Assembly (NCBI GenBank): GCA_016190205.1
Contig: JACPQZ010000045.1
Location: forward strand, 33,923 to 97,922
DNA length: 64,000 bases
From: Candidatus Omnitrophota bacterium
GTDB taxonomy: Bacteria > Omnitrophota > JACPQZ01
Direction of reading: 5' to 3'
Shown here: positions 4,181 through 63,698 of the stretch, piece by piece
How positions within the stretch are numbered: position 1 is the first letter of the stretch
Layout of the letters: the number at the start of each line of letters is the position of its first letter
The notes under the pieces: model-generated
What the model saw: the letters and a program-made list of their open reading frames with translations, nothing else
The model's database searches: none
What the model was told of the DNA's origin: nothing
Program-made: the position numbers and the translations under genes

Positions 4181-4250
4181 CACGAAGTCCACAGTCCACG
4201 GTCGACAGTAGACTCTCATCTCTTGCCGTGGACTGTGGTCTGTGGACTAC
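4181..4250. repeat. Palindromic heptamer-repeat element (GTCCACA class)
   Basis: cacgaag-gtccaca-gtccacg-gtcgaca-gtagact ... inverted partner gccgtgga-ctgtggt-ctgtgga-ctac. 7-nt periodicity with imperfect dyad symmetry. Confidence 0.5.
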
Positions 4251-4262
4251 TTTAATGTGTGC

Positions 4263-4808
4263 CTAAAACTTGATCTCGAGCTTTCGAAGCCAGCGATTGA
4301 GGGCGTAGCGGGAAATACCCAGGACCTCGGCCGCCTTCTGCTGGTTCCAGCTGCAATGGTTGAGGGCCTTCACGATGAGTTTGCGATAAATTTGATCCCT
4401 CGCCTCATCTAGATTAAGCCCGGTGAGGGTAAGCCGGGTGACATCAGAATCACCCGCCGCGCGGTTGACCGCCCGCACGAGCACCTCATTGCTAAACGGT
4501 TTGGCAACCACGTCAAAGGCCCCGAGTGAAGAGTAATATGTCGAATCGGGCCCATCCGCAAAGGCGCTCACGATGATAACCGGAAGATCCGGGTATTTCT
4601 TCTTAATGAGCTGGATGACTTCGGTTCCTTCCATCTTGGGCATGCGGATATCCAGAAGAACACAGCCGTAGCTTTTTCGTTCGAGGAAGGAAACGGCCTT
4701 CGGACTCTCCTGACAGTGGTCCGAAGCATACCCCGCGTGCTCCAGGACTTGCCTTACGGTGTCTGCAACCCCCTCGTCATCGTCTACAATTAGAACCGGT
4801 TTTGTCAT
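4263..4808 (-). CDS. Response regulator (receiver + Fis-type HTH)
   Basis: N-terminal 'KPVLIVDDDEGVADTVRQVLE' receiver with 'VLLDIRMPKMEG'. C-terminal 'WNQQKAAEVLGISRYALNRWLRK' Fis-family HTH. No sigma-54 AAA+ domain. Only convincing minus-strand gene in the window. Confidence 0.8.
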   Translation of the reverse strand: MTKPVLIVDDDEGVADTVRQVLEHAGYASDHCQESPKAVSFLERKSYGCVLLDIRMPKMEGTEVIQLIKKKYPDLPVIIVSAFADGPDSTYYSSLGAFDVVAKPFSNEVLVRAVNRAAGDSDVTRLTLTGLNLDEARDQIYRKLIVKALNHCSWNQQKAAEVLGISRYALNRWLRKLEIKF

Positions 4809-4925
4809 GTTGTCTATTATAGTCTTTTGCAGAAAATAAAAAAAGCGGATCATCGCCCTTTGTGGTAATATTTTATATTGAGCGTATATAGCTCATTCTG
4901 TTTAGAAAATGGGAAAAAACTGTTA

Positions 4926-6251: not shown

Positions 6252-6255
6252 CCGT

Positions 6256-7194
6256 ATGATTTTCATGCGCCTAACCATCGTGTCACTTGCCCTTGTGCTC
6301 ACCGCGTGCGGCTGCGCAACTGCCTCCCGCCGGGGTGACGGCACGATGACGCTCGAGCCCGTCCGCTGGCATCATCAGGAGTTTCTGCTGGGAATCCGCT
6401 CCCTGACACCCCACGGGGCCGCGGAAATCCATGGCCTGCGCGTAGGGGATCTCATCCTGTCCGTGGACGGAGAGCCGGTGGGCGACAGGGAGGCCCTCGA
6501 GCGCAGGGTCCGGGAGGGACAGGGGCCCATCGAGCTTAACGTTTTATCCAGTGGAGTGGAGTGGTCGCATTCTCTGCCCGAGCAGTTCCGGACAACGGGG
6601 TTGGGAGTGGATGCCCAACCTAGTTACCGAACGGTTACAGAAAAAGGTGTCCCTCTAGCCATTGCAGAAGGGCGATTAGTCGTCGTGAGCGCATGGGCGC
6701 GCCAAAGTAAAGATCTCATGTTTGTCGACCTCCGCGTCGAAAATCTTAGCGACTCTACGATCGAGGTGACCCCGCGTGCGTTTACGCTTTTGGACAGCGG
6801 GCGGAAAGTCGTGCGGCCCTACCACCCCCGCGATCTGGCAGGATCCTACCTGAGTGGAGCGGAGCTTGCCCTGGATGAGGCGGATATCCACATGGGCGGG
6901 GCCGCCGGACGCAGACATTCCGTGAAGATCTCTTCCTTAGACCCCATCTCGGGGCTTATCTCCGCCCTCCTGGCCCTGCCTTTTCAAACAGCCGAAGCCT
7001 CCATCCGCGAGGCCCGTAAGGCCCAGGTGAAGGCAGAGGCCATTGTTGACAGGGCCTATGCGTTCGGCCCCCTTCCCGCGCGAGCCTCCCAGGAGGGGCT
7101 CCTTTTCTATCCCCACACGGACGAACTGCCCATAACACTTACCGTAACTATCGGGGAAGATCACCTCAATCTTGTTTTTATGGAACCGGCCTAA
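6256..7194 (+). CDS. Lipoprotein with PDZ domain
   Basis: Lipobox 'LVLTAC'. PDZ-like 'GAAEIHGLRVGDLILSVDGEPVGD'. No protease domain seen. Confidence 0.45.
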   Translation: MIFMRLTIVSLALVLTACGCATASRRGDGTMTLEPVRWHHQEFLLGIRSLTPHGAAEIHGLRVGDLILSVDGEPVGDREALERRVREGQGPIELNVLSSGVEWSHSLPEQFRTTGLGVDAQPSYRTVTEKGVPLAIAEGRLVVVSAWARQSKDLMFVDLRVENLSDSTIEVTPRAFTLLDSGRKVVRPYHPRDLAGSYLSGAELALDEADIHMGGAAGRRHSVKISSLDPISGLISALLALPFQTAEASIREARKAQVKAEAIVDRAYAFGPLPARASQEGLLFYPHTDELPITLTVTIGEDHLNLVFMEPA

Positions 7195-7199
7195 CCCAT

Positions 7200-7862: not shown

Positions 7863-7920
7863 AGCTTGAGCGCCTTGACCCATCCAGAAGGGCTATGATA
7901 TACTTTCAGTTACGAAGGGT

Positions 7921-8664
7921 TTGACGAAAAAGAAAGGGTCAATCATGAATAAAGGATCTATAGGAGTTGTCGTAACTATAGCCTGCGGTCTTATTATCCC
8001 TTATGCGCAGCAGGTTCAGGCAGAAGATACTGCAGCGACGAAAGTTCTCAAACAGGGCCTCGTGGGCGCCGGGGTAGGCGCCATCAGCGCCGAGGCCTCG
8101 GGCGGGAAGGCCGGGAAGGGGGCGCTCGTGGGCGCCGGGACGAACGTTATTGGAAGTGCGCTTCTGGACGCCTTGAGCGGCAGCAGCGCCCCTCCAGCAC
8201 CCGCACCTCCTCCTAGACCCCGTTATTATGAACAGCCACAACCCCAATACCAGGACCCGTATTACGAAGAAGAGTACTATGAGCCGGCGCCTCCTCCGCC
8301 GCCGCCTGCTCCACGGCGCGTGATCCGAAGGACGGCGCCTGCCCCTCAACCTGCTCAAAACCAATCCACAAAAATCCTCAAACAGGGCCTTGTGGGCGCC
8401 GGGGTAGGCGCCATCAGCGCCGAGGCCTCGGGCGGGAAGGCCGGGAAGGGGGCGCTCGTGGGCGCCGGGACGAACGTCCTCGGGAGCGCGCTCTTGGATT
8501 TTTTCAGCAATAGCTCCAGCCAGAACACACAGCAATACTACGAAGAGCCTGCCCAGCAGGAATACTATTACGAAGAAGAACAGCAGTACTACGACGACCA
8601 GGGCACGACTTCAGAAACCAGTCCCACGCGCCGGACTCGCCGCGTGATCCGACAGGGGTACTGA
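7921..8664 (+). CDS. Secreted Gly-zipper / Pro- and Tyr-Glu-rich repeat protein
   Basis: Signal peptide. Two copies of 'KILKQGLVGAGVGAISAEASGGKAGKGALVGAGTNV' (glycine-zipper-like), each followed by PPPAPPP and YYEEE low-complexity tracts. Confidence 0.5.
   Translation: MTKKKGSIMNKGSIGVVVTIACGLIIPYAQQVQAEDTAATKVLKQGLVGAGVGAISAEASGGKAGKGALVGAGTNVIGSALLDALSGSSAPPAPAPPPRPRYYEQPQPQYQDPYYEEEYYEPAPPPPPPAPRRVIRRTAPAPQPAQNQSTKILKQGLVGAGVGAISAEASGGKAGKGALVGAGTNVLGSALLDFFSNSSSQNTQQYYEEPAQQEYYYEEEQQYYDDQGTTSETSPTRRTRRVIRQGY
8044..8479 (+). repeat. Intragenic 103-bp near-perfect direct repeat (2 copies)
   Basis: 8044-8146 and 8377-8479 differ at only 2-3 nt. Spacing is 333 bp, so the copies are in frame. 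Confidence 0.85.
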
Positions 8665-8683
8665 CCTCGGGGTAACACCTCTT

Positions 8684-8788
8684 GTCGCTGGCCGCTGGTC
8701 GCTAGTCGCTGGCAAGCAAGAACCCCATCAGTTTAAAGACCGTTTCATTATGCTAGCGACCAGCGACTAGCGACTAGTTACTAGCGAC
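8684..8788. repeat. Palindromic heptamer-repeat element (GTCGCTG/AGCGAC class)
   Basis: gtcgctg-gccgctg-gtcgcta-gtcgctg ... loop ... ctagcga-ccagcga-ctagcga-ctagtta-ctagcga. The arms are reverse complements (for example gtcgctagtcgctgg). Confidence 0.5.
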
Positions 8789-8812
8789 GGGCGGTGATAA
8801 TAATCCGGCCAA

Positions 8813-8850
8813 CCACCCACCCAGGCCAGTAAGCCTGGGTGGGTTTTTTT
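8813..8850 (+). terminator. Rho-independent terminator
   Basis: CCACCCAGGC-cagtaa-GCCTGGGTGG followed by TTTTTTT. Confidence 0.6.
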
Positions 8851-11571: not shown

Positions 11572-11667
11572 CGCCGCCCGAGTCATTAGGCGAAAAGATC
11601 GAGAGGAGACTACAGACTGAAGACTTAACGAAAACCACCTCTTTTAATCTGAAGTTTGTTTTTTTGC

Positions 11668-11728
11668 GATGCACGAAGCACGAAGCACGATTCAGTCTGT
11701 AGTCTGTGGTCTGTAGTCTTCAGTCTTA
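11668..11728. repeat. Heptamer tandem arrays (GCACGAA x3, then GTAGTCT-like x4)
   Basis: gcacgaa-gcacgaa-gcacgat-tcagtct-gtagtct-gtggtct-gtagtct-tcagtct. The GCACGAA heptamer recurs at 34163, 55256 and 61561. Confidence 0.5.
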
Positions 11729-12552: not shown

Positions 12553-12668
12553 GTATTTCCGAAACAATTGTTGTACTCGTAAACCAAAAAAACCAACTAA
12601 AACCACTTGACAGACTATAATCCCGGATGTTAAATTAAAAACCAACAGAGACTACGGTCTCTACTCAC

Positions 12669-12720
12669 CTAGAGGTTCCTAGTATAACCACTCCCACTTA
12701 TACTGGGAACCTCGTTTTTT
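12669..12720 (+). terminator. Rho-independent terminator (possibly the 3' end of a small RNA)
   Basis: GAGGTTCCTAGTATAA...TTATACTGGGAACCTC hairpin followed by TTTTTTT. A second hairpin (agagac-tacg-gtctct) precedes it in the 200-bp non-coding gap. Confidence 0.45.
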
Positions 12721-12755
12721 TATCCATATTTCATAATGGGCAAGGCAACACAGAG

Positions 12756-12920
12756 ATGATTGACGAAAAGCTTCTGGCTATTCTGGCTTGCCCCGTTTGC
12801 AAGAAGAAGGTTCGTTGGAATCAGGAAAGACTTGTTTGTGAATCCTGCGGCCGCCGCTACCCTGTAAGAGATGGTATTCCGATCATGCTCGTTGAGGAAG
12901 CGGACTTGGCCCAGCAATAA
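12756..12920 (+). CDS. Trm112/YcaR-family small zinc-ribbon protein (UPF0434)
   Basis: 54 aa, 'LLAILACPVCKKKVRW...LVCESCGRRYPVRDGIPIMLVEEA', classic Trm112 signature. Not in the ORF track because it is under 60 aa. The antisense 80-aa ORF 12720-12962 is rejected. Confidence 0.7.
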   Translation: MIDEKLLAILACPVCKKKVRWNQERLVCESCGRRYPVRDGIPIMLVEEADLAQQ

Positions 12921-13042
12921 GGCCCCCACCTTTCCACGCTCTGTATCATCGATCCTATCCAAACTCCTGCCGTTTGCTTTTACGCGCTACATCTAGTAAC
13001 ATATACGTCACATATGCTTAGGATAAAAACCGGGGGACGGGT

Positions 13043-19145: not shown

Positions 19146-19228
19146 GCGGCGTATTTGTTCGTCGTTCGTTGATCGGTTATCGGTCATCGCAAACTTTTTC
19201 TTGCAATAACCGATTACCGAACACCGAT
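19146..19228. repeat. Palindromic heptamer-repeat element (CGGTTAT class), copy A
   Basis: tatttgttcgtcgttcgttgatcggttatcggtcatcgcaaac ... ttgcaataaccgattaccgaacaccgataatcg. The arms are inverted repeats. The head is a direct repeat of the head of copy B at 19743. Confidence 0.5.
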
Positions 19229-19425
19229 AATCGAAGTTGCACGTAAAGCGTACACGTGAGGCGCGCAAAATAACAACATATAGCGTCTATTGCGCAGCGC
19301 AGTCTAGGTATAGTGTCAGAATCATGTTACGAAATGTGCCCGTAGAAATAATTTGTTTTTGAAGTTATAATACGCAACACGCACGACGCGGTACGCACTA
19401 CGAAGTACTGTGCCTAAGTCATGAT

Positions 19426-19497
19426 GCGGGTGTAATTCAGCGGCAGAATGCAAGCTTCCCAAGCTTGACGTTGTGGGTTCGACTCCCATCACCCGCT
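19426..19497 (+). tRNA. tRNA-Gly (anticodon CCC)
   Basis: 72 nt. Acceptor GCGGGTG/CACCCGC, D-arm ATTC/GAAT, anticodon stem CAAGC/GCTTG with loop TTCCCAA, T-loop GGTTCGACTCC, discriminator U. Confidence 0.85.
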
Positions 19498-19702
19498 GTA
19501 TTTATCCGCGTAACGTGATGGGAGTCGAACCCAGGGAAAAGGGTTCGGGGAAAACGGGAGTTTTCCCCGAGGCACGGCGCATCTCAGGTGAGGGGGGAAT
19601 CTAAGGGGGGTGCGCAGCACGAGTGAATAATGGATGATCGCAAGCACCCCCCTTAGGGAGCATCGGCGTTTCAAATTTGATGGATCAAAGAGCCGATGCG
19701 AC

Positions 19703-19727
19703 GGGTTCGACTCCCATCACCCGCTGT
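19703..19727 (+). repeat. Exact 25-nt direct repeat of the tRNA-Gly 3' end (T-arm + acceptor)
   Basis: gggttcgactcccatcacccgctgt at 19473-19497 and again at 19703-19727. An inverted copy of the T-arm (gatgggagtcgaaccca) lies at 19518-19534. Confidence 0.8.
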
Positions 19728-19742: not shown

Positions 19743-19822
19743 GATTTGTTCGTCGCTCGGGGATCGGTTATCGGGGATCGCAAACCCCGGATGATTGCGA
19801 TGACCGATCACCGATAACCGTA
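19743..19822. repeat. Palindromic heptamer-repeat element (CGGTTAT class), copy B
   Basis: gatttgttcgtcgctcggggatcggttatcggggatcgcaaaccccggatgattgcgatgaccgatcaccgataaccg is an imperfect palindrome. With copy A it brackets the tRNA locus. Confidence 0.5.
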
Positions 19823-34063: not shown

Positions 34064-34067
34064 CCTT

Positions 34068-34195: not shown

Positions 34196-34219
34196 ACGGC
34201 CACCCAGAGATCAACTTGT

Positions 34220-43545: not shown

Positions 43546-44649
43546 ATGGAACGGGCAATCCTGGTATTAGAATCGGGCACCAAGCGAATCATCGATTTTA
43601 ACCATCATACCATCCGCCTGCTTCGTTTCGTCCCGAAGGAGCTCCTGGCGCTTTCATTCCAGGACTTTTTCTCTCGCGACGTAAAGGATTTCGTCTTGGA
43701 GGGGTACCTGAAGGCCCTCCACAAATCTCAATGCCGTGTGGATCAGGTCCTGATCAACCGAAAAGACGGTCCGCCCGTACCTGTAAGCATAGAATATCAA
43801 TGTCCAGATCCCAAGGGGAACGTGACGGTAATTATTTACCCCCTGTCAGACCAAAACGGCAACGGGGAATGGGATCCGCAGCAGGAGCTTACAGAGCTCC
43901 GGCAGGCATACCGGCGCCTTTCGGACTTGAACCTAACACTGAAGAAGAGGATTACACACCTGGCAGAGGTGCTCGCGCTTGCGGACGCCCGTTTCGATTC
44001 CGCGCAGGATGAGATGACAGAATCCCTCAGACAAAAGGAGGGCACGAAGAAAGAATGCCTGTCTCTCATGGCTTCGATCATCCGCTCCGTGGAAGAGCGC
44101 GATCCTTTGTCACGCGGCCACTCAGACCGCGTGGTGGTCTTCGCCTTCGAGATTGCGCAGGCCCTCAAACGCCCGGAAAAGGAGCTGGACATCATTCACA
44201 ATTACGGAGCGCTTTACGACATCGGTAAGGTGGGCATTGCGGAGGCCACGCTCACCAAACAAAACCCGCTGACCGACGAAGAAAGGCTTCTCATCACGGA
44301 TCACCCTGTGATCGGAACAAGAATCTTAAAGCACATACCGTGGATGGAGCCTGGTCTTGACCTCGTCCGACACCATCATGAGCGTTATGACGGATCCGGG
44401 TATCCCGATGGTCTCAAGGGCAAAGACATCCCGCTCCTGGCGCGTATTTTCATGGTCGCCGATGCCTTTGAGGCCATGACCCGTGACCGCGCGTACCGCA
44501 GGCGCCTTCCGGTCTTCAAGGCTATTCAGGAACTGGAACGACTTCAGGGAGCGCAGTTTGATCCCGGCATCGTAGATACCTTCAAAAACAAAGTCCTCTC
44601 ATCTCAACCCCACCTCCTCAACGAAACGAACGACGAATCCGCAGCCTGA
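43546..44649 (+). CDS. HD-GYP c-di-GMP phosphodiesterase with N-terminal sensory (PAS-like) region
   Basis: 'HSDRVV...YDIGKVGIAEATL' and 'HHHERYDGSGYPDGL' HD-GYP signature. Confidence 0.8.
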   Translation: MERAILVLESGTKRIIDFNHHTIRLLRFVPKELLALSFQDFFSRDVKDFVLEGYLKALHKSQCRVDQVLINRKDGPPVPVSIEYQCPDPKGNVTVIIYPLSDQNGNGEWDPQQELTELRQAYRRLSDLNLTLKKRITHLAEVLALADARFDSAQDEMTESLRQKEGTKKECLSLMASIIRSVEERDPLSRGHSDRVVVFAFEIAQALKRPEKELDIIHNYGALYDIGKVGIAEATLTKQNPLTDEERLLITDHPVIGTRILKHIPWMEPGLDLVRHHHERYDGSGYPDGLKGKDIPLLARIFMVADAFEAMTRDRAYRRRLPVFKAIQELERLQGAQFDPGIVDTFKNKVLSSQPHLLNETNDESAA

Positions 44650-44892
44650 GAAAACTTGAGACTATAGACCTGAGACCCGAGACCCAAAGTCAAAGGTACA
44701 GCTGCCCGCCGCCTTGCCAGTTTCTTGTCTCGTGTCTCTTGTCTCGTGTCTCTTGTCTCGTGTCTAAAGTCTCCTTAGCCTGAGAAGACTTGAGACTATA
44801 GACCTGAGACCCGAGACCCAAAGTCAAAGGTACTGCTGCCCGCCGCCTTGCCAGTTTCTTGTCTCGTGTCTCTTGTCTCGTGTCTAAAGTCT
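44646..44892. repeat. Tandem duplication, 2 x about 122 bp, each unit internally pseudo-palindromic and rich in GAGACCC/GAGACAC heptamers
   Basis: Units start near 44646 and 44768 and are nearly identical (cttgagactatagacctgagacccgagacccaaagtcaaaggtac.gctgcccgccgccttgccagtttcttgtctcgtgtctc...). Confidence 0.85.
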
Positions 44893-44989
44893 CCTTGCGA
44901 TTGACTTCACGAGCAGTCTATGATATTTTGACGGTGCCGTTACCTGCCGGCTGACCTCTTTTTGACTACCTGACAACGTTAGCAAGTGA

Positions 44990-47440
44990 ATGCTTTTGTT
45001 TGAAGAATTCGTCACGCGTTTAAGCGACTTCGTTTGGGGCCCTCCCTCCATCCTCCTCCTCATTGGGACGGGAATCCTCCTTTCCTTCCGCACAGGTCTC
45101 ATCCAGCTAAAAAAATTCGGTCTTGGCCTGAAGATTATTCGCGGTGACTACGATGACCCCGGGATCGCCGGCGACGTCAGCCACTATCAGGCCCTCTCCA
45201 CAGCCCTGGCGGCCACGATCGGCACGGGCAATATCGTGGGCGTCGCTACGGCCATCGCGGTGGGGGGGCCAGGCGCCGTGTTTTGGATGTGGATTACAGC
45301 CCTGGTGGGAATGGCGACCAAGTATTCCTGCTGCCTCCTCGCCCTGCGTTACCGAACGACCGACCCATCGGGACACATAAGCGGCGGGCCCATGTACTAT
45401 CTGGAAAGGGGACTGGGCCTCAAGGCCCTCGGCCGGCTTTTTGCACTGTGCACGGTGGCTGCCGCCCTCGGCATCGGCAACCTGGTGCAGTCCCACTCCG
45501 CCGCCGATTACCTGCACAACACCTTCTCCATCCCGCAAGGGGTTACGAGCGTCGCCCTGGCCGTCCTCGTGGGTTTGGTTATTATCGGCGGGATCCGCCG
45601 CATCGCTCATGTGGCAAGCTTCCTGGTTCCTTTCATGTGCGCGTTTTACACCCTGGCGTGCTTGGTGGTGCTGGTACTTAACATCTCAAAGATTCCCGAG
45701 GCCCTGGGACTCATCTTTAAGCACGCCTTTACCCCTCTGGGGGCAACCGGAGGCTTTTTGGGGTCGAGCGTGCTCCTCACCATGCGCATGGGGGTCGCGC
45801 GCGGTATCTTCTCCAACGAGGCGGGCCTGGGAAGCGCCCCCATCGCCCACGCAGCCGCCAAGACCAAAGAACCGGTCAGGGAGGGGCTCGTAGCCATGAT
45901 GGGGCCTTTCATTGATACGATCCTGGTTTGCACCCTGACCGCGCTCGTCATAATCACCACCGGCGTATGGAGGGAAGGTCTGGATGGGGCCACCCTGTCC
46001 GCGCAGGCCTTCCACAGAGGACTGGGGATTTGGGGAGAGCGGGGAGTGGCCTTGAGCCTGCTGCTCTTCGTCTACACCACGATCATAGGCTGGTTTTACT
46101 ACGGCGACCGCGCACTGTATTATCTCACGGGGCCCCGGTACGCAACCGCCTACAAATGGCTCTGGACTTCGCTCGTGGCCGTCGGGGCCGTAGTCCAACT
46201 CAAGACGGTCTGGAATCTGGCCGACATTGCGAACGGGTTTATGGCCTTCCCCAATTTGGTGGGCCTCATCGGCCTGTCCGGTGTGGTCTCAAAGTCGACG
46301 CGGGATTATTTTGAACGCGTCAAGCGCGTCACGCCCCTGGTAGGCACGCACGAGCGCCTCGGGGGCCGCATGACGGACTTCCATGGCTGGTACCTTCCGC
46401 TTCAGTACTCGGGTATCCTGGAAGAGCACCGGGCCGTCCGGCAGGTGGCGGGGCTCTTCGACGCAAGCCACCTCGCCAAGATCCATATCACAGGAGAAGA
46501 CGCGCACAGCTTTGTCCAGAAACTCGTGGTCTCTGATTTATCCCGCATGGGAAGGGGAGATATCCTGTATACCCTGATCACAAATGAGAAGGGTGGCGTG
46601 CTTGACGATATCCTGGTTTATATGCATTCTCACCGTCATTATTTCTTGGTGACGAATGCGGTGCAAAGCGCAAAGGTCATTCCCTGGCTTCAAAAGCACC
46701 GTTTTCCGAACACCCAAATCCGAGACGCGACCCAGGCACTAGGCATGCTGGCCCTCCAGGGGCCGCGGGCCGTTGAGTTCCTTGAGCCGTATCTTAAGGC
46801 CTCTTACAAAAGGTTAAAACTCTATACCTTTGAACAGGGCACTTTTCAGAACAAGATCCCCGTCCTGGTCTCGCGGACCGGCTACACCGGCGAGGACGGA
46901 TTTGAGCTCATCCCTCCGGCAGGTAAATCGGCTTGGGTTTGGAATACGCTCTCGAATACCTTATTGAGCGACGGGACCCCGCTCGTGCCCTGCGGGTTGG
47001 GAGCCCGGGATACTTTACGGCTTGAGGCCGGAAATCTCTTGTCAGGCCAGGACTTTGACGAACGCAATAATCCCTTCGAGATCGGCCTAGGAAAACTTGT
47101 GCACTTCGAAAAACCCTACTTTCTGGGCAGGCCTGCCTTGGCCCGCCTTCATGCCCGGGAACCCCGCACGAGGCTTGCCGCCTTCACCCTGAAGGGGCGG
47201 GCCATCCCGAGATCCGGAAACCCTGTGTTCGGCGCGGGCGCAAGGGCAGGGGAGGTCACCAGCGGATCCTTCGCCCCGACGCTTGGCTACACCATCGGCC
47301 TCGCCCATATCGATTCATCTTTCTCCGCGCCGGGAACAGAGATCGAGATTGAAACGCGCGGCCAGCGCTTTCCCGGAGTCGTCACTTCCAAACCCTTTTA
47401 TCGTCGCAGGGCCCTGACCAGCCTTAAAGGAGCGCATTAA
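44990..47440 (+). CDS. gcvT: Fusion: alanine/glycine:cation symporter (AGCS) + glycine cleavage T protein (aminomethyltransferase)
   Basis: N-terminal about 450 aa carry AGCS motifs ('ALSTALAATIGTGNIVGVATAIAVGGPGAVFWMW', multiple TM helices). C-terminal about 360 aa are GcvT ('LPLQYSGILEEHRAVRQVAGLFDASHLAKIHITG', 'SRTGYTGEDGFEL'). No stop codon between them. Confidence 0.7.
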   Translation: MLLFEEFVTRLSDFVWGPPSILLLIGTGILLSFRTGLIQLKKFGLGLKIIRGDYDDPGIAGDVSHYQALSTALAATIGTGNIVGVATAIAVGGPGAVFWMWITALVGMATKYSCCLLALRYRTTDPSGHISGGPMYYLERGLGLKALGRLFALCTVAAALGIGNLVQSHSAADYLHNTFSIPQGVTSVALAVLVGLVIIGGIRRIAHVASFLVPFMCAFYTLACLVVLVLNISKIPEALGLIFKHAFTPLGATGGFLGSSVLLTMRMGVARGIFSNEAGLGSAPIAHAAAKTKEPVREGLVAMMGPFIDTILVCTLTALVIITTGVWREGLDGATLSAQAFHRGLGIWGERGVALSLLLFVYTTIIGWFYYGDRALYYLTGPRYATAYKWLWTSLVAVGAVVQLKTVWNLADIANGFMAFPNLVGLIGLSGVVSKSTRDYFERVKRVTPLVGTHERLGGRMTDFHGWYLPLQYSGILEEHRAVRQVAGLFDASHLAKIHITGEDAHSFVQKLVVSDLSRMGRGDILYTLITNEKGGVLDDILVYMHSHRHYFLVTNAVQSAKVIPWLQKHRFPNTQIRDATQALGMLALQGPRAVEFLEPYLKASYKRLKLYTFEQGTFQNKIPVLVSRTGYTGEDGFELIPPAGKSAWVWNTLSNTLLSDGTPLVPCGLGARDTLRLEAGNLLSGQDFDERNNPFEIGLGKLVHFEKPYFLGRPALARLHAREPRTRLAAFTLKGRAIPRSGNPVFGAGARAGEVTSGSFAPTLGYTIGLAHIDSSFSAPGTEIEIETRGQRFPGVVTSKPFYRRRALTSLKGAH

Positions 47441-47442
47441 CT

Positions 47443-47829
47443 ATGGAATTTCCCCATGATTTGAAATACACCTCAACGCATGAATGGATACGCATGGACG
47501 GAAACCGCGCCCGCGTGGGTGTCACGAGCTTTGCCGCGCAGGAGCTTTCGGACGTCGTATACGTGGATCTGCCCGAAGTCGGGAAGGAGGTCCAGGCGGG
47601 TCAGGAAGTTTCCGTGGTGGAGTCTGTGAAAGCGGCTTCATCGATCTATGCCCCCCTCGCAGGCAGGGTAGCAGACGTCAACACAGCCCTCAAATCAAAC
47701 CCGGCCCTCTTGAACGAGTCCTGTTATCAAGAGGGATGGATTTTTGAACTTGAGCTTACACCCGGCGCCCCGGCGCAGGGACTTCTCACTTCGAAGGAAT
47801 ACTTAAAAACGCTCGAAGGGGAAAAATAA
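47443..47829 (+). CDS. gcvH: Glycine cleavage system H protein
   Basis: Lipoyl domain 'VSVVESVKAASSIYAPLAG'. 128 aa. Confidence 0.9.
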   Translation: MEFPHDLKYTSTHEWIRMDGNRARVGVTSFAAQELSDVVYVDLPEVGKEVQAGQEVSVVESVKAASSIYAPLAGRVADVNTALKSNPALLNESCYQEGWIFELELTPGAPAQGLLTSKEYLKTLEGEK

Positions 47830-50704: not shown

Positions 50705-51367
50705 ATGCAAGAAGATTGGTTCGAACTCCTGAAGGCTCGGGAGACCGCTTCTTACCCGCCCAAACTGCTTTTTTACCGTTTCCGCGGGCCCGTTATGACC
50801 ATCGGGCGTCATACCCATAAAGAAGAGGTGTACCGTTCCCACGAAGGTTCCCGCTTGAAAGAGCGCACCGTCCGCCGCGCCACGGGAGGGGGGGCCATCT
50901 TCCATGCCGGGGGGATGTGCTACTCATGGATCAGCAGGGGAAAGACCACCCGCTCCGGCCGAAACGAGTGCGTGTACTGGCTTCGAGACATGTTGCTTGC
51001 AACGCTCGAGCCGCTGGGAATCTTGGGCAAGACCCGAGACCCGAGACCCGAGACCCGAGCAAGAACCCTGGGCTCCTGGTGCGCCTTCGAGGAAGCCGAA
51101 ACAGATCTAATCATCGGACACAAAAAGCTGGGGGGCATGGCCCAGCGCTTATTTAAGGACGCCATTCTCATCGAGGGTTATCTGACCCTGCGCCGCCGCG
51201 AAACTATCTGGATGGAACGCATCGCCGCCCGCGGGATCCTTGAAAAACACAGCGCGCGTCCAGTATCCTTGGAAGAACTTGCTGGAAGACCAGTCCATTA
51301 CGACGAAATCGTCAGCCGATTCATGCACATATCCCATGACTTCCGAACCCGATCTTGCCCGGCGTAA
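50705..51367 (+). CDS. Lipoate-protein ligase / octanoyltransferase-like (BPL/LPL catalytic domain)
   Basis: 'RRATGGGAIFHAGG...YSWI' and 'GHKKLGGMAQRL' BPL_LplA_LipB motifs. Directly follows gcvPB. Confidence 0.6.
   Translation: MQEDWFELLKARETASYPPKLLFYRFRGPVMTIGRHTHKEEVYRSHEGSRLKERTVRRATGGGAIFHAGGMCYSWISRGKTTRSGRNECVYWLRDMLLATLEPLGILGKTRDPRPETRARTLGSWCAFEEAETDLIIGHKKLGGMAQRLFKDAILIEGYLTLRRRETIWMERIAARGILEKHSARPVSLEELAGRPVHYDEIVSRFMHISHDFRTRSCPA
51029..51058 (+). repeat. In-frame heptamer array (GAGACCC x4) inside the lipoyl-ligase CDS
   Basis: caagacccgagacccgagacccgagacccgagc encodes KTRDPRPETRA. The same heptamer occurs in the intergenic tandem repeat at 44672. Confidence 0.85.
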
Positions 51368-52445: not shown

Positions 52446-53616
52446 CTGCCGTCAGCTTGGGTCTTGGGTATTGGGTTTTGGGTTTCTCACGTTGCTCCAA
52501 ATCCCTGCACTCGACGCGGGTGTTCCGCTCAAGGCACAGCGCGCCCTGCAAAAAAATAACTCCGCGCTCTCTCAACTCGCCGAGGGGAATAAGGAGAGGG
52601 CGGTCCAGCTCCTCACAGAGGCACATGAACTCGATCCGCACAATGTGACGATACGGCAAAACCTCGTTAACCTCTACTTAAACAGCGGACTGGACGCCCT
52701 CGAGGCCGGCCAGTACGAGTCTGCCCATGAGGATTTCACAAAGGCCCTGGAGATCGCACCCACAAATTTTACTGCCCTCAACGGCCTCGGCCAGGTCCAC
52801 TATCAGAAGCATGAGCTTGAAGACGCGAAGATCTTCTGGGGCAAAGCACTTGCCCTCAAGCCTGAGGACTCGGAACTGTCGGAAAAACTGGGACAGCTCA
52901 ACCAGGAAATCAAGATGGACAGCGATTTTAGAACCGTTAAGGCGCCTCATTTTGACATCCGCACGGAAAAGGGAGTCGTGGAAGAAGGCGATCATGAACT
53001 GCGCAGGGTACTCAACGATACCTACCGCCATACCAGCCAGGACATGCAATTTTTCACGCAAAGGACGATCATCGTCCTCATTTATTCGCAGGAGGCCTAC
53101 CACGAGCTCGCCTCGACCCCGCACTGGTCCGGCGGACTGTTCGACGGCAAGATCCGCATCCCCATCCCCGACGAGCGCAGCGGCTGGCCCGGTTTTGAAC
53201 CCGTCATCCGGCACGAGTTCACTCACGCCCTCATCTGGGAAATCACGCGCGGCGCCTGTCCACCCTGGCTTAATGAGGGCCTCGCTCAATACGAAGAGCG
53301 GGGGGGGCGCTTCTCTAAAATGCCTCCGGAATTACTTAAGCTGGTCAGGGAAAATGAAACGCAGGTAATCCCCATGGCGGCGCTCAATAACCCCTTCGCC
53401 CGGTGGGAAGATTTAGACCTCATCCGGAGGGGCTACGCCAAGTCTGAATCCCTGGTTCGCTACATCATCCAGCGCTATGGCCTTTGGAAAATACACAATA
53501 TCCTGGCCCTGCTCGGCAAAGGAGAACCCATGGAGTCTGCAGTGCGCAAAGAGTTAGCCCTGGAACTCAGCGGCCTCGAAGCAGATTGGGTAAAAGCTGT
53601 TAAAAGAGGTAAATGA
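52438..53616 (+). CDS. Secreted TPR protein with C-terminal HExxH metallopeptidase-like domain
   Basis: Signal peptide. TPR units (LDALEAGQYESAHEDFTKALEIAP...). C-terminal 'IRHEFTHALIWE' HExxH and 'NEGLAQYEE'. Confidence 0.5.
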   Translation: MLNCRQLGSWVLGFGFLTLLQIPALDAGVPLKAQRALQKNNSALSQLAEGNKERAVQLLTEAHELDPHNVTIRQNLVNLYLNSGLDALEAGQYESAHEDFTKALEIAPTNFTALNGLGQVHYQKHELEDAKIFWGKALALKPEDSELSEKLGQLNQEIKMDSDFRTVKAPHFDIRTEKGVVEEGDHELRRVLNDTYRHTSQDMQFFTQRTIIVLIYSQEAYHELASTPHWSGGLFDGKIRIPIPDERSGWPGFEPVIRHEFTHALIWEITRGACPPWLNEGLAQYEERGGRFSKMPPELLKLVRENETQVIPMAALNNPFARWEDLDLIRRGYAKSESLVRYIIQRYGLWKIHNILALLGKGEPMESAVRKELALELSGLEADWVKAVKRGK

Positions 53617-53845
53617 CAAAAAGGGGCAGGATTAGGGTGGCAGGGCCCCTCTATGCCAAATGCAACTAAACTTTTATCTTATTGTTAATAAATGAGTAAC
53701 GTAGTACTAGTACTTCGATAACCAGTCTATAGGTTATACTTTCAGTAGGTAGAGGTAGAGCTCAAAGATCTTATACATAGGTTATCCTCTGAACTGGGTG
53801 AAGGTCCGTGCACCCAAACTTTTGGACGTAAGGGGGTGAGACGAC

Positions 53846-53986
53846 ATGAAGATGGATGACCTCGTGATAGGAACTCTTATTGGGATCGTTTTAGGCATCC
53901 ACTACGGAGCAGAACTCGCCACGTATAATGTCTTGTTCGTGGTGTTCCTGGTCCTAGGCGGCCTAAAACTCGTCCTAAAGAAGTAA
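53846..53986 (+). CDS. Small hydrophobic peptide (46 aa)
   Basis: RBS AGGGGGTGAG, ATG at 53846, product MKMDDLVIGTLIGIVLGIHYGAELATYNVLFVVFLVLGGLKLVLKK. Followed by a strong terminator. Below the ORF-track size cutoff. Confidence 0.3.
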   Translation: MKMDDLVIGTLIGIVLGIHYGAELATYNVLFVVFLVLGGLKLVLKK

Positions 53987-54015
53987 CACCTGAACGTAAG
54001 TAAGACAGCAACATG

Positions 54016-54050
54016 AACGGCTGGGAAGCAGTGTTTCCCAGCCGTTTTTT
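54016..54050 (+). terminator. Rho-independent terminator
   Basis: AACGGCTGGGAA-gcagtgt-TTCCCAGCCGTT followed by TTTTTT. Confidence 0.6.
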
Positions 54051-54054
54051 CTCC

Positions 54055-54083
54055 TTGCCAAGGCCAACCCTGCATGTTACAAT
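54055..54083 (+). promoter_or_regulatory. Sigma-70-like promoter (TTGCCA-17-TACAAT)
   Basis: -35 TTGCCA at 54055, 17-nt spacer, -10 TACAAT at 54078. The ATG at 54091 lies only about 7 nt downstream (leaderless-type arrangement). Confidence 0.4.
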
Positions 54084-54090
54084 CAAGCCC

Positions 54091-54201
54091 ATGAATTTCA
54101 ACCTTTTTCACTTCGACAACGAGCGCTTCCACACGATCATGACCGGGGTTGTCATCGGGCTCATGATTACACTAGCCTTCCACATTCTGGCTGCGATATA
54201 A
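54091..54201 (+). CDS. Small hydrophobic peptide (36 aa)
   Basis: MNFNLFHFDNERFHTIMTGVVIGLMITLAFHILAAI, a single TM helix, immediately downstream of the promoter above. Confidence 0.25.
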   Translation: MNFNLFHFDNERFHTIMTGVVIGLMITLAFHILAAI

Positions 54202-54296
54202 TCACACCAGCGTTTTCATACAAGGCTTGTCCCAAGTCCCATGTCCAAAATCGGTTGGGCCGTGACTTGGGACATGGAACATGAGACTTACACCAG

Positions 54297-55255: not shown

Positions 55256-55282
55256 CCGTGCTTCGTGCTTCGTGCTTCGTGC
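55256..55282. repeat. Heptamer array CGTGCTT x3 (reverse of GCACGAA class)
   Basis: ccgtgcttcgtgcttcgtgcttcgc immediately after the dcd stop. Confidence 0.6.
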
Positions 55283-55306
55283 TTCGCAACAGAGAGGAGG
55301 AGAGTT

Positions 55307-59580: not shown

Positions 59581-59587
59581 GCGGGCA

Positions 59588-61550: not shown

Positions 61551-61560
61551 TAGATCCAAA

Positions 61561-61593
61561 CCGTGCTTCGTGCTTCGTGCCTCGTGCTTCGTG
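61561..61593. repeat. Heptamer array CGTGCTT x4
   Basis: ccgtgcttcgtgcttcgtgcctcgtgcttcgtgg between the mutase and the JAMM gene. Confidence 0.6.
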
Positions 61594-61605
61594 GATCGTT
61601 CGTAA

Positions 61606-62028
61606 ATGATCGTCCTAACCCAAGAGCAAAAGACGGCCATCGAACGTGAGGCACGGCAGCACTATCCGAATGAGTGCTGCGGTATACTCGCTGGGCACAT
61701 TCAGGGACGAGACAAATGTATACAGGACATTTACCCTGTCAGTAATATCAATCAGGAGCGCTCCGTAGATCGTTATAACATCGATCCAAAGGAATTTCTC
61801 GCGGTCTCCAAAAGGATAGAATCCCTGGGCCAGTCGCTCGTCGGAATCTACCATTCCCACCCGGACCATCCCGACCGGCCTTCGGAATTCGACCGGGGGC
61901 ACGCATGGGAAGTGTACTCCTACATCATCGTCGGAATTGAGCAGGGAAAAAAAGTCTCCATGCGCTCTTTCGCCCTAGACCCAAACAGGCAGTTTCAAGA
62001 AGAAGAGATCAAGATCGTCAAGCCATGA
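61606..62028 (+). CDS. JAMM/MPN+ (Mov34) metalloprotease
   Basis: 'ECCGILAG' and 'GIYHSHPDHPDRPSEFD' (E...HxHx7Sx2D zinc motif). Confidence 0.7.
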   Translation: MIVLTQEQKTAIEREARQHYPNECCGILAGHIQGRDKCIQDIYPVSNINQERSVDRYNIDPKEFLAVSKRIESLGQSLVGIYHSHPDHPDRPSEFDRGHAWEVYSYIIVGIEQGKKVSMRSFALDPNRQFQEEEIKIVKP

Positions 62029-63083
62029 AGCCTTTTTCCCTTCTCATCCCAGACACGGCCTTCAAACATCCCGCAGGGCGCATCCGAACCGGATTTTACT
62101 CGGACGTCTATTTTTCCAGAACCCAAAAAATACTCGAGCGCGAGGGGCGCCGGGCGCGGGTCGTCATGCAGATCTTCTGCAAGGAGCATGCCCTTCTGTG
62201 CGGGGTCCAGGAGGTCCTGGCCCTTTTAAAACAACAGAAACCCACAGGAGCGCCGCTCAAGGTGCGCGCCCTTAAAGATGGAACGGGAATCCGTCCCTGG
62301 GAAACGGTGCTGACCCTGGAAGGGGAATACCGCGACTTTTGCACGCTGGAGACCCTCATCTTAGGGATCCTCACACGAAGAACCAGTATCGCGACACAAA
62401 TGCGGCGCTTGGTCCAGGCCGCCTCTCCGAAAGGAGTCATCTATTTTGGGGCCCGCTTCGATCATTATCTCATGCAGGAAGGGGACGGCTATGCGGTCCG
62501 CGTCGGCGGGGCCCTCGCCTCCTCCACTCCTGCCACAGAATATTGGTTCGGAAGGGAAGGTACAGGAACTATTCCGCACGGCCTGATCGCCGCCTTTCAG
62601 GGTGATACCACTGCTGCCGCACTTGCCTTTGACCGGCACATCGTTTCGAAGATCAAAAGGATCGTACTCGTGGATTTTGACAACGACTGTGTGGGCACCG
62701 CCCTGGCCACCGCCCGTGTGTTGGGAAGGAAATTATGGGGCGTTCGACTCGACACCGCAGAGAATCTGACGGACCGCGCGATCACGCGGGCAAGGTCCCG
62801 CCATCGCGGGGTCTCGCCGCTCCTCATACGTCTGGTGCGCAGGGCCCTGGACCGCGCCGGGTTTGCGCGGGTGAAAATTATCGTGAGCGGGGGGTTTAAT
62901 GAAACTCGTATCCGGGACTTTGTACGGCGCAAAGTCCCCTTCGACCTCGTAGGTGTGGGCTCGAACGTCCATCGTTTCCGTGTCGACTTTACCGCTGATG
63001 TCGTGAGTGTAAATGGCCGCCCGTGCGCCAAGGTGGGGCGCCGCTTTCGACCGAACCCAAGGCTCAAACGGGTGGACGTGTGA
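62025..63083 (+). CDS. Nicotinate phosphoribosyltransferase-family protein (archaeal-type)
   Basis: Type II PRTase family features ('FGARFDHYLMQ', 'GVRLDTAENL', 'IIVSGGFN'). Start overlaps the JAMM stop. Confidence 0.55.
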   Translation: MKPFSLLIPDTAFKHPAGRIRTGFYSDVYFSRTQKILEREGRRARVVMQIFCKEHALLCGVQEVLALLKQQKPTGAPLKVRALKDGTGIRPWETVLTLEGEYRDFCTLETLILGILTRRTSIATQMRRLVQAASPKGVIYFGARFDHYLMQEGDGYAVRVGGALASSTPATEYWFGREGTGTIPHGLIAAFQGDTTAAALAFDRHIVSKIKRIVLVDFDNDCVGTALATARVLGRKLWGVRLDTAENLTDRAITRARSRHRGVSPLLIRLVRRALDRAGFARVKIIVSGGFNETRIRDFVRRKVPFDLVGVGSNVHRFRVDFTADVVSVNGRPCAKVGRRFRPNPRLKRVDV

Positions 63084-63616
63084 AGCTGCGCACGTGCCGC
63101 CGGGTTTGGCAGGGGAGGGTCTTCACGGTTGAACAGGCGGAATTTGAAATGGCGAGAGGCGCCCGAAAGCTGGACATCGTGCGGCACGGCGGGGCCAGCG
63201 TCATCCTGTCTGTGCTCAAGCGCAATCGGATCTTGCTCATCCGCCAGGCGCGCCCTGCCGTGGGAAGGGTTATCTGGGAACTTCCGGCCGGTACCATTGG
63301 GAGAGGGGAAAGCCCCTTGGCCTGCGCCCGCCGCGAGCTCGCCGAGGAGACCGGCTGGCGAGCCGGAAGAATCAAACACCTGATCTCATTCTTTCCCAGC
63401 CCTGGATTTTGTGACGAGAAGATGCATGTCTTCGTCGCCACACAACTAAGTTTCGTCGGCCAAAGACTCGAACCTGACGAGGAGCTTACGGTCCGAACCG
63501 TGACTTTAAAACAAGTGCTGGACATGATCCAAAAAGGCCTGATCCACGACGCGAAGACCATCGTTGCTCTACTGGTCTGGCAGCTTAATCGTAAAAAACA
63601 CGGCCGTGACTCGTAA
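63080..63616 (+). CDS. NUDIX hydrolase (ADP-ribose pyrophosphatase-like)
   Basis: 'WQGRVFTVEQAEF...GGASVIL' NudF-type N-terminus. Nudix box 'GESPLACARRELAEETGW'. GTG start overlapping the upstream stop (GTGA). Confidence 0.7.
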   Translation: MKLRTCRRVWQGRVFTVEQAEFEMARGARKLDIVRHGGASVILSVLKRNRILLIRQARPAVGRVIWELPAGTIGRGESPLACARRELAEETGWRAGRIKHLISFFPSPGFCDEKMHVFVATQLSFVGQRLEPDEELTVRTVTLKQVLDMIQKGLIHDAKTIVALLVWQLNRKKHGRDS

Positions 63617-63698
63617 TCCGTGACCCGTGACCCGTGAATTGTGAACTGCGGTATATCTACTTATGCTAGCGACGAGCGACGAGCGACGAGCGACAAAC
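63617..63698. repeat. Heptamer arrays (CCGTGAC x3; AGCGACG x4)
   Basis: tccgtgacccgtgacccgtgaattgtgaa ... gctagcgacgagcgacgagcgacgagcgac. The AGCGAC unit is shared with the element at 8684-8788. Confidence 0.6.

Follow-up and report, generated by a model that had tools for sequence, protein, structure and literature searches.

A 64-kb stretch of a Candidatus Omnitrophica metagenome-assembled genome (MAG; phylum Omnitrophota, contig JACPQZ010000045.1), a gene-dense chromosomal region that we call the window, carries fourteen dispersed elements built from tandem 7-nt units, most of them intergenic and many with a second array in reverse complement nearby. These elements are a lineage-specific, dense case of a class of intergenic heptanucleotide arrays already known from Geobacter, Xanthomonas, Nostoc and Beggiatoaceae. 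The explanation we favour, with a probability of about one half, is that they are simple-sequence arrays which were born and remodelled by junction duplication and slippage, copied in inverse orientation by strand switching and kept where coding tolerates them, their effects on RNA being incidental. The window adds a new phylum and a very dense case to the class. Arrays of this kind have stood unexplained since the cyanobacterial short tandemly repeated repetitive (STRR) sequences of 1990, through the Geobacter examples of 2009 and those of Xanthomonas, Nostoc and Beggiatoaceae in 2015. Here their origin becomes approachable from sequence because the window offers clean before-and-after junctions, at which overlapping or abutting genes have been parted by an array and the old junction duplicated. 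If the arrays were only products of slippage they would be a well-documented curiosity.

Period-7 arrays in the window

Tandem Repeats Finder returned 48 rows for the whole window, about 20 of them period-7 arrays of 2.9-5.7 copies. With two scans of our own it agrees on head-to-tail 7-nt units in at least three copies, the definition of the 7-nt class of long simple sequence repeats (SSRs). Period 7 alone is enriched: a strict scan gave nine arrays of period 7, one of period 14 and none of any other period from 3 to 15, while a looser scan, which asked for at least 18/21 matches at a given lag, gave 11 segments at lag 7, five at lag 14 and none at every other lag from 4 to 15. Twenty dinucleotide-preserving shuffles yielded no segment at any lag, so that within the 64-kb window the arrays are indeed commoner than composition predicts. 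At least eight mutually unrelated unit classes are present in the 64 kb, copy number per array clusters near 4, and the longest inverted repeats in the window are the heptamer arrays themselves.

The original prediction, made from the letters of the window, had named ten or more such loci. All are real and contain 7-nt periodic arrays, as Table 1 shows, although four others had been overlooked (1-91, 52456-52485, 54229-54287 and 63604-63637). The unit classes said to recur do so: GCACGAA / CGTGCTT at 11667, 34162, 55257 and 61562, AGCGAC at 8753 and 63668, and GAGACCC at 44666, 44800 and 51030. What had been taken for one long element at 44646-44892 is instead a 134-bp unit present 1.8 times (44643-44895). 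A contig-specific assembly artefact can be dismissed, since identical arrays are found at 61562-61599 and 63604-63694 in short-read assemblies made independently from four other sequencing runs.

Table 1. Heptanucleotide elements of the window, with the arrays detected at the previously noted loci, genomic settings and predicted RNA folds; z-scores were measured against shuffled sequences.
Element	Positions	Strand	Arrays	Tandem Repeats Finder	Setting	Fold z	Fold energy (kcal/mol)
E0	1-91	.	inverted arms 3-23 and 46-66; TTTGGGA x4.4 at 61-91 (Tandem Repeats Finder, inverted-repeat scan)			-2.05	-28
E1	4186-4248	.	AGTCCAC x3.4 (4186-4209), GTGGACT x3.0 (4228-4248); arms 86% complementary, 21 nt apart	4186-4209, 4228-4248	between convergent genes, directly after terminator-like stem-loop ~4141-4172	-5.98	-37.3
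E2	8673-8799	.	GTCGCTR x4 (8681-8713), CTAGCGA x5.1 (8753-8788); 47 nt between arms	8686-8713, 8753-8788	3' region of gene 7921-8664, between stop codon and strong terminator-like hairpin 8815-8844	-7.92	-65.4
E3	11607-11727	.	composite: ACAGACT-type arm 11607-11625; GCACGAA x3.4 11667-11690; AGTCTGT-type x5 11691-11727	11667-11690, 11694-11719	fills spacer between iPGM and Memo genes	-2.76	-41
E4	19157-19234	.	TCGGTTA-type heptamer hairpin; homologous to E5	19146-19235 by reading and lag scan	after PfkB-family gene, ~190 nt upstream of tRNA-Gly	-3.81	-31
E5	19754-19822	.	second TCGGTTA-type hairpin copy (Tandem Repeats Finder, inverted-repeat scan)	19757-19780, 19798-19820	after tRNA-Gly region, 15 nt before M23 peptidase gene start	-2.21	-33
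E6	34060-34203	.	degenerate GTGCWTC-type left arm 34068-34101; GCACGAT/GCACGAA x4.3 right arm 34162-34191; 60 nt between arms; inverted repeat of 42 nt, 79%	34162-34191	fills 156-nt spacer between thiolase and 3-hydroxyacyl-CoA dehydrogenase genes	-4.39	-59.1
E7a	44643-44776	.	first 134-bp copy; GAGACNN x4 left arm, GTCTCKT x6-7 right arm (14-nt super-unit x3)	44666-44885 (with E7b)		-3.82	-41.5
E7b	44777-44895	.	second copy; 14-nt super-unit x2	see E7a	ends at promoter-like site 44895-44929, upstream of symporter-GcvT gene
E8	51030-51059	+	AGACCCG x4.3, perfect; encodes TRDPRPETR		in LplA/LipB-like coding sequence
E9	52456-52485	+	TTGGGTN x4.1		within gene for TPR / peptidase-MA protein
E10	54229-54287	.	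GTCCCAA-type array and reverse complement, 11 nt between arms		in leader between promoter-like site 54055-54083 and gene starting at 54297	-3.32	-26
E11	55257-55286	+	CGTGCTT x4.3, perfect, unpaired	55257-55286	begins 4 nt past dCTP deaminase stop, ends 20 nt before next start codon
E12	61562-61599	+	CGTGCTT x4.6 and degenerate units, unpaired	61562-61593	between B12-binding and JAB genes; junction 55 nt
E13a	63604-63637	+	CCGTGAC x4.9	63604-63637	first units are last four codons and stop of NUDIX gene; E13 as a whole fills 73-nt junction between NUDIX and SAM hydroxide adenosyltransferase genes
E13b	63668-63694	+	AGCGACG x3.9, perfect	63668-63694	directly upstream of SAM hydroxide adenosyltransferase gene (start ~63690) or inside its 5' end (ATG 63663)

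The placement of the elements was assessed with a gene map of our own curation, in which some starts were placed with the arrays in mind, a point that bears on the following figures for non-coding bias. Non-coding DNA makes up 8.8% of the window; 12/14 elements lie in it, covering 20% of its length, and 12 of the 25 gaps that are 40 nt or longer contain one. The overall density is about one element per 4.5 kb. The intergenic placement proposed earlier is thus broadly right, with exceptions at 51030-51059 and 52456-52485, both in coding sequence. The more specific suggestions, that the elements sit between convergent or tandem gene ends and often beside terminators, hold only in part. Nearly all window genes are on the + strand and many neighbours overlap by at least 4 nt. 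Many elements do lie between co-directional genes, whose spacers are filled by E3, E6, E11, E12 and E13, but a single locus (4186-4248) is convergent, others belong to a 5' leader or precede a promoter-like site, and only E1 and E2 adjoin strong terminator-like hairpins. The settings are therefore mixed, comprising 3' regions before terminators, spaces between cistrons, a 5' leader and sites upstream of promoter-like sequences. E3, E5, E10, E11, E12 and E13b lie just upstream of starts, and single arrays of one unit class are found in both orientations relative to transcription.

Inverted pairs of arrays are present at nine loci, with stems of 16-42 nt made of tandem units and 11-75 nt between the arms. 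All nine fold well as RNA (Table 1). About a third of the arrays are unpaired, and these are less structured than shuffles or at most equally so (E11, z +1.93; E12, z +0.40; E13, 63600-63700, z +1.78). The forward plus reverse-complement arrangement described earlier as usual is real for the nine paired loci. None of the paired-array hairpins has a U-tract of its own. Ungapped alignments of the arms contain 12 G-T, 10 A-C and 25 transversion-type mismatches; selection on the sense transcript would be expected to leave an excess of G-U over A-C mismatches, and with no such excess there is no sign of selection for RNA pairing.

Some details of individual elements deserve mention. E0 may extend past the start of the window and overlaps the 3' end of a small minus-strand open reading frame (ORF) at 47-337, which ends inside the array. 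In E8, the encoded loop varies in length among LplA/LipB-like homologues (HMMER search and protein alignment); the idea that it is an insertion relative to them was given up, the alignment showing no clear extra 7 residues, and a PDB sequence search with the E8 protein gave no match, while a word-indexed search returned that protein alone. If its gene starts at ATG 52438, as the reading frame suggests, E9 most likely specifies the hydrophobic stretch at the core of a signal peptide (LGSWVLGFGF). Its units, TTGGGTC TTGGGTA TTGGGTT TTGGGTT, also conform to G3N4G3N4G3N4G3, the canonical G-quadruplex pattern, on the coding strand. The possibility that every unit contains a stop codon, so that 21 nt would bring stops in all three frames, was dropped: CTAGCGA, CCGTGAC and TGTAGTC are only some of the units and, by inspection, the frequency does not exceed the ~30% expected.

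Probable gain and remodelling of the arrays

Relatives of the window were found by two protein searches, and at all three junctions for which orthologues are available (60-73% protein identity) the arrays are absent, the corresponding genes overlapping or lying 2-30 nt apart. Two of these junctions are seen in the nearest relative for nicotinate phosphoribosyltransferase (73% identical), the European Nucleotide Archive contig L086. Its B12-binding and JAB genes overlap (ATGA), its NUDIX and SAM hydroxide adenosyltransferase genes are 7 nt apart, and no tandem repeats were found at these counterparts of the E12 and E13 junctions. The third corresponds to E6: in contigs L300, L301 and L302, which encode 3-hydroxyacyl-CoA dehydrogenase orthologues of 65-70% identity, the dehydrogenase gene follows the upstream gene after 2-30 nt without an array. 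The upstream gene is a thiolase in L301 and L302 and has no Pfam record in L300.

Other Omnitrophota sequence, about 109 kb of it, contains one element as against the 11 segments of the 64-kb window. This lies at 9758-9995 of L207 (GCA_016206925.1) and has a different unit, though it too is an inverted pair: some nine AAGTGAT / AAGTCGT / AAGTGGT units are followed by about 110 nt of A/G-rich sequence and then by the reverse-complement units ACTTACC and ACTTACG, and 8 nt separate the end of the element from the ribosome-binding site of the nicotinate phosphoribosyltransferase gene. No array is present in L302, another locus of this genome, 21 kb long. The architecture of the arrays therefore recurs in Omnitrophota while their positions and units do not, and array density in the genome of the window is at least ten times that in the other Omnitrophota. 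Judged by the sequences at these junctions, the arrays are a recent, lineage-specific gain and are not conserved at the depth compared.

Of the three insertions for which relatives show an empty site, two (E6 and E12) have flanks that are diverged copies of the ancestral junction, including the downstream start codon. E6 is flanked by two copies of CTTGTAYGTRCATC, the second of which holds the start codon; as imperfect direct copies of 14 nt they read CTTGTACGTGCATC and CTTGTATGTACATC. The flanks of E12 are imperfect direct copies of about 26 nt, TGGAACGCTC-ATGATAGATCCAAACC and TGGATCGTTCGTAAATGATCGTCCTAACC. Among random pairs of window 40-mers about 2% score as high as the E6 or E12 flank duplication. 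No exact target-site duplication flanks any element and, when flanking direct repeats were sought by exact and gapped comparison, 9/11 elements were at background, with no duplication of fixed length. The junction duplications speak to the origin of the arrays but not necessarily to a transposase, since they are expected in any surviving insertion between overlapping genes.

Signs of subsequent change come from the two pairs of related elements. E7a and E7b are 98% identical and differ by exactly one 14-nt (two-unit) block, which makes the slipped-strand variability suggested at the outset plausible. E4 and E5 represent one element of about 80 nt in two diverged copies, with 77% column identity over the aligned stretches and different numbers of units in their arms; a reading of their alignment found no compensatory changes. 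Beyond the unit itself, E4 and E5 are the only separate loci to share sequence, E7a and E7b being an adjacent tandem pair.

These results may be assembled into a four-step history. A short duplication of the junction would uncouple abutting or overlapping genes, leaving a copy of the junction on each side as now seen at E6 and E12; the duplication may well have preceded the array. Units of 7 nt would then be gained and lost by slipped-strand mispairing, which could account for the whole-unit differences seen between paralogues. The reverse-complement array found tens of bases away in ~60% of loci would most economically derive from strand-switch (hairpin-templated) copying. Finally, selection would presumably leave arrays almost only where they are now seen, in spacers, at the ends of genes and in loops or signal peptides that tolerate them; we propose that they are nearly confined to non-coding or tolerant sites because 7 is not a multiple of 3. 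Any effects on the cell are probably incidental, the paired arrays forming long imperfect hairpins in operon transcripts and the unpaired ones unstructured spacers before start codons. A strict period combined with many unrelated units points to a property of the generating process rather than to one sequence-specific reader. A possible basis for the period is offered by Mrazek et al. (2007), who, as quoted in PMC4692102, suggested a link with the length of DNA held by the polymerase at its active site.

A tendency of particular genomes towards such arrays is also visible in other lineages. Our control set of unrelated bacterial loci, 1.42 Mb gathered with the symporter-GcvT query (relatives of at most 55% identity from many phyla, and diverse in composition), contains 16 lag-7 segments against 0-3 at other lags. 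These are clustered in MAGs of Pirellulales, Verrucomicrobia and Thiotrichaceae, with single arrays in Thiohalophilus, Desulfobacterales and Halomonas records. Similarly, metagenome contigs picked for one CGTGCTT array contain 90 further period-7 arrays of other units, compared with 17 of period 6 and 19 of period 8. Certain genomes thus tend to carry heptamer arrays of many different sequences, which fits a process-level cause better than a sequence-level one.

In each of L005 (Pirellulales), L021 (Verrucomicrobia) and L034 (Thiotrichaceae UBA4486), four to six arrays of heptamers lie within a few kb of one another, several of them as inverted pairs, such as AAACGGA / TCCGTTT in L021 and ATCTGAN / NTCAGAT in L034. 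Another contig, L187, contains an array that drifts unit by unit from GAAGACC via AAAGACT to GAAGCAC. CGTGCTT arrays in metagenome contigs show no orientation bias with respect to neighbouring ORFs. About half of them fall inside crude ORF calls, a figure we judge uninformative because the calling was rough and three units keep the reading frame. There is no evidence that CGTGCTT is special in viral contigs, where three tandem copies occur at 5 loci against 7 and 74 for two permutations of the same composition.

Weighing the explanations

Several observations fit poorly with an origin of the arrays in duplication and slippage alone. A general polymerase bias to 7-nt slippage would predict more two-copy seeds, yet isolated seeds are not in excess: runs of 7-9 matches number 9 at lag 7, compared with 8, 3, 10 and 8 at lags 6, 8, 9 and 10, and nearly all the lag-7 runs lie inside larger arrays. 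The clustering of copy number near 4 looks more like constraint than open-ended slippage. In assemblies of one population (four to five of them), the E12 and E13 sequences are identical, so that the copy-number comparison suggested in the original prediction revealed no variation at these loci. The junction duplications at E6 and E12 are poorly explained by neutral slippage. Two further points concern particular sequences. By reading, the two arms of E7 have matching five-base cores, a TAGAC variant among them, but different two-base spacers, a pattern that resembles that of protein sites. Three tandem copies of CGTGCTT are present in at least 120 metagenome contigs of G+C 0.32-0.71 (a count not normalised against permutations), one of which, Ga0155648_127 (L125, G+C 0.43), carries a CGTGCTT / GCACGAW hairpin that includes even the GCACGAT variant of E6. 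Recurrence of units both within the window and in such different contigs hints at sequence-level selection or transfer. The hairpins of L125 number three in 13 kb (1874-1960, 6527-6609 and 6646-6683), each with CGTGCTT x5, a short loop and GCACGAW x4.

Some of these points lend weight to the idea that the arrays serve as binding sites for a protein which recognises DNA or RNA with a 7-nt register, in which case the unit classes would represent different regulons. The strict period, the narrow range of copy numbers, the occurrence of one unit in both direct and inverted arrangement, the constant core and free spacer of E7 and the recurrence of unit classes would all be natural for such a reader. 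On duplex DNA a precedent exists in the omega-type ribbon-helix-helix repressors, which bind contiguous 7-bp heptads, direct or inverted. On RNA, the unpaired arrays are unusually unstructured and would suit a single-strand binder; cold-shock or S1 domains, spanning ~6-7 nt each, were proposed by MacGregor for TAACTGA repeats (PMC4679880), and several of our arrays end 0-25 nt from a start codon, as reported for those repeats. We nevertheless consider a reader unlikely. Many readers would be required for the eight or more unrelated unit classes of the 64 kb, the genomic contexts are heterogeneous, all relatives examined lack the arrays at orthologous junctions, and single arrays in both orientations relative to transcription argue against reading at the RNA level. 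Pfam found no ribbon-helix-helix or cold-shock protein among the ~40 window proteins included in our domain scan. A GAC/GTC core common to many units was noticed post hoc; it is not significant after correction for 32 trinucleotide pairs, is absent from the arrays of other lineages, and was dropped. A broader form of the idea would see in the 7-nt register the footprint of a dedicated system, acting either as a reader, in which a family of periodic nucleic-acid-binding proteins would read heptad classes as separate regulons in modules of about four units, or as a writer, which would insert templated modules of about four units into junctions, duplicating 14-26 nt of target, and so represent a new kind of non-autonomous insertion. 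Taken jointly, these two versions strike us as a long shot.

Selection for the paired arrays as RNA (or single-stranded DNA) hairpins, acting like repetitive extragenic palindromic (REP) sequences without being such, is distinctly unlikely. Such hairpins would protect upstream mRNA from exonucleases, serve as RNase III processing sites or slow transcription, and the 7-nt period would reflect the way the stem was built. The nine loci do form much stronger folds than shuffled sequences (z -2.05 to -7.92, -26 to -65 kcal/mol), they lie in transcribed spacers of co-directional genes or just upstream of terminators, and the same architecture is seen in L207 and in the Verrucomicrobia and Thiotrichaceae loci. 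However, the arms show no preference for G-U over A-C mismatches (12 against 10) and half of their mismatches are transversion-type, compensatory changes between E4 and E5 are lacking by reading, and the arms are 11-75 nt apart. None of the hairpins ends in its own U-tract, the terminator-like hairpins beside E1 and E2 being separate structures; about a third of the arrays are unpaired and none of the three orthologous junctions in relatives has a hairpin. Inverted-repeat-like ends, the relationship of E4 and E5, the direct duplications flanking E6 and E12, the absence of the insertions from relatives and the breaking of short-read assemblies at the elements, as at repeats, might instead suggest non-autonomous mobile elements, either miniature inverted-repeat transposable elements (MITEs) or of the REP or bacterial interspersed mosaic element (BIME) type, whose heptamers would be multiple transposase-binding sites in terminal inverted repeats. 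Yet there is no consistent target-site duplication, with 9/11 elements at background and the two positives differing in length (14 and ~26 nt); the loci share no internal sequence, and inverted ends are missing from the unpaired arrays. With unit sequences that differ between loci, the elements could not all be recognised by one transposase. Moreover, a tblastn search of the window with an Omnitrophota Y1 transposase (from L211) gave a best E-value of 1.2, and no Pfam transposase signal was seen among the scanned proteins. This makes mobility very improbable. The same low standing befits phase variation, in which a change of unit number would shift the reading frame (E8, E9, possibly E13b) or the spacing of a promoter or leader. 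Two coding sequences do contain arrays and several starts have one directly upstream, E7a and E7b illustrate a change of unit number between paralogues, and switching by heptanucleotides is documented in E. coli K1 (neuO) and in Haemophilus (hmw promoters). But arrays of only 3-5 copies are short for slippage at a high rate, the genes concerned belong to housekeeping metabolism (thiolase, methylmalonyl-CoA mutase, NAD salvage, dCTP deaminase), four to five independent assemblies agree in sequence, and for most arrays a position between cistrons gives length no obvious role as a switch; we find contingency loci barely credible here. Birth by junction duplication with later slippage and strand switching remains the explanation that we prefer.

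Known heptanucleotide repeats and neighbouring features

The description of the heptameric periodicity as unusual proved overstated, an intergenic excess of heptanucleotides having been reported in several bacterial groups. Heptameric SSRs are over-represented in many bacteria according to Mrazek et al. (2007), as cited in PMC4692102. A close parallel comes from Geobacter metallireducens (Aklujkar et al. 2009, PMC2700814), whose class 3 'global regulator binding sites' contain five tandem MTYCTGA units on opposite strands and whose Gmet_H4 elements contain four tandem GGACCGG units. Its heptamer families lie between and within genes, with pairs at variable distance, for example between proB and proA, which belong to one pathway, and are absent from the corresponding place in G. 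sulfurreducens; the authors proposed sites for regulators or for proteins of the IHF/HU type, as an interpretation without a test (PMC2700814). The window shares with this species four to five tandem heptamers, opposite-strand pairs at variable distance, intergenic placement with some intragenic copies, species-specific positions and several unrelated unit families per genome; opposite-strand paired arrays of the Geobacter type are found in its intergenic DNA at nine loci. It differs in units and phylum, in that its loci mostly share the unit only, whereas the Geobacter families have many BLAST-matching copies, and in having none of the additional 8- and 9-nt families. Tandem Repeats Finder reported no window arrays of the Geobacter consensus units MTYCTGA, GTTGCTYN or TCTCCGTS. 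The unit of L034 resembles both MTYCTGA and the TAACTGA unit of Beggiatoaceae.

In Xanthomonas (GGGAATC) and Nostoc (GGGGAYT), intergenic G-rich heptamers prefer about four units and are sometimes inverted, and no function was found for them (Rehm et al. 2015, PMC4692102). Their length and sequence vary widely between related species, genes of all functional classes adjoin them, and they were studied for their G-quadruplex property (PMC4692102). The strong non-coding bias, the roughly four units, the occasional inverted pairs and the neighbouring genes of all functional classes have direct parallels here. In contrast, theirs is a single G-rich, G-quadruplex-capable family, while in the window only the TTGGGTN / TTTGGGA class has that capability. 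The Xanthomonas repeats mostly lie between the same genes in two species, against 0/3 shared junctions for the window, but the relatives compared here are much more distant.

The marine Beggiatoaceae present 169 direct sets of two to six TAACTGA units and one inverted set, mostly just upstream of start codons (MacGregor 2015, PMC4679880). The unit is shared with some Cyanobacteria and Bacteroidetes, no functional pattern is evident downstream, and the readers suggested are S1, cold-shock or CsrA proteins (PMC4679880). The window arrays are likewise intergenic tandem heptamers, often a few nt from a start, and CGTGCTT, like TAACTGA, seems to be present in distant phyla. Unlike that one dominant and almost always direct unit, however, the window has many units and inverted pairs at most loci. 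Tandem Repeats Finder detected no TAACTGA array in the window. Cyanobacterial STRR sequences are mentioned in PMC4692102 as three tandem heptanucleotides in Calothrix PCC 7601. They resemble the window arrays in that several heptamer units per genome are dispersed in tandem through non-coding DNA; the units and phylum differ, the host here not being cyanobacterial. The units that Mazel and colleagues reportedly described in 1990 were CCCCAGT, TTGGTCA and CAACAGT. STRR arrays are usually longer and have not been described as palindromic pairs. Also relevant is the omega repressor of plasmid pSM19035, which binds contiguous 7-bp heptads of consensus WATCACW at few sites that overlap promoters. 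Its operators, with contiguous 7-bp units in direct and inverted order, show that a protein can impose a 7-bp register, but the units and contexts of the window are diverse and no such protein was found among the window proteins scanned.

The likeness to REP/BIME elements that the original prediction had noted is not supported. The elements are indeed extragenic (with two coding exceptions), palindromic, repeated and often placed between co-directional or convergent genes. However, their arms differ from locus to locus, there is no family consensus beyond the unit, no conserved tetranucleotide at the foot of the stem and no GTAG-type end, and the heptamer stems have long loops. Identity with REP/BIME was rejected, as the loci share no conserved palindrome of ~20-40 nt and the window has no credible match to a Y1 transposase of the REP-associated (RAYT) type. 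Identity with MITEs was rejected in turn, there being no fixed-length target duplication and no set of multiple near-identical full-length copies (only E7a/E7b at 98% and E4/E5 at 77%). We found no report linking Omnitrophota with heptanucleotide repeats in the literature searched.

The arrays have practical consequences for sequence analysis. They fragment short-read assemblies, as repeats do: Logan contigs of the same organism (L081-L085, L212 and L213) end at or inside E7, E12 and E13, and the first base of L085 is window position 61561. Gene callers, too, are misled by the arrays on starts and stops. Longest-ORF starts extend into arrays at 11656 (rather than ~11732), 34172 (34220), 63663 (~63690) and 52264 (52438), the true starts being placed downstream of or beside the arrays by domain positions or the length of the NCBI protein (405 aa for the dehydrogenase); gene callers disagree over 63663. 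Translation initiation in the window seems to rely little on Shine-Dalgarno pairing, with GGAG, GAGG or AGGA within 20 nt upstream of the start in only 12/60 genes (~20%). A loss of Shine-Dalgarno motifs at array-preceded genes was not found, the core motif being present in 1/7 of them and in 11/53 other genes, and the idea that arrays displace these motifs was dropped, their frequency being the same with or without a preceding array.

Some neighbouring features of the window may be recorded here. An Rfam scan raised only tRNA to gathering score. The tRNA-Gly(CCC) region (19426-19727) is unusual in that the last 19 nt of the tRNA recur as a perfect inverted copy at 19515-19533 and the last ~25 nt as a direct copy at 19703-19727. 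The copies bracket ~205 nt with internal complementary G-rich and C-rich runs and no Rfam match; they look like an att-type duplication from a small integrated element, or a tRNA-linked RNA gene. Downstream of E7, a single 816-aa ORF (44990-47440) fuses a sodium:alanine symporter to the glycine-cleavage T protein (aminomethyltransferase) and is followed by a GcvH gene (47443-47829). Full-length matches to the fusion in the genome collection come only from Halomonadaceae (40-53% identity), while the symporter half alone matches many phyla. Near E10, a stretch of 680 nt without convincing ORF (53617-54296) contains a terminator-like hairpin of 15 pairs (54015-54047), the strongest in the region, and right after this hairpin comes the promoter-like site 54055-54083 with its extended -10. 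Lastly, the 490-nt gap at 12553-13042 holds a period-9/10 repeat, AAACCAACAA x2.6 at 12581-12605, together with a promoter-like site (12607-12636) and a 16-nt inverted repeat (12672-12713).

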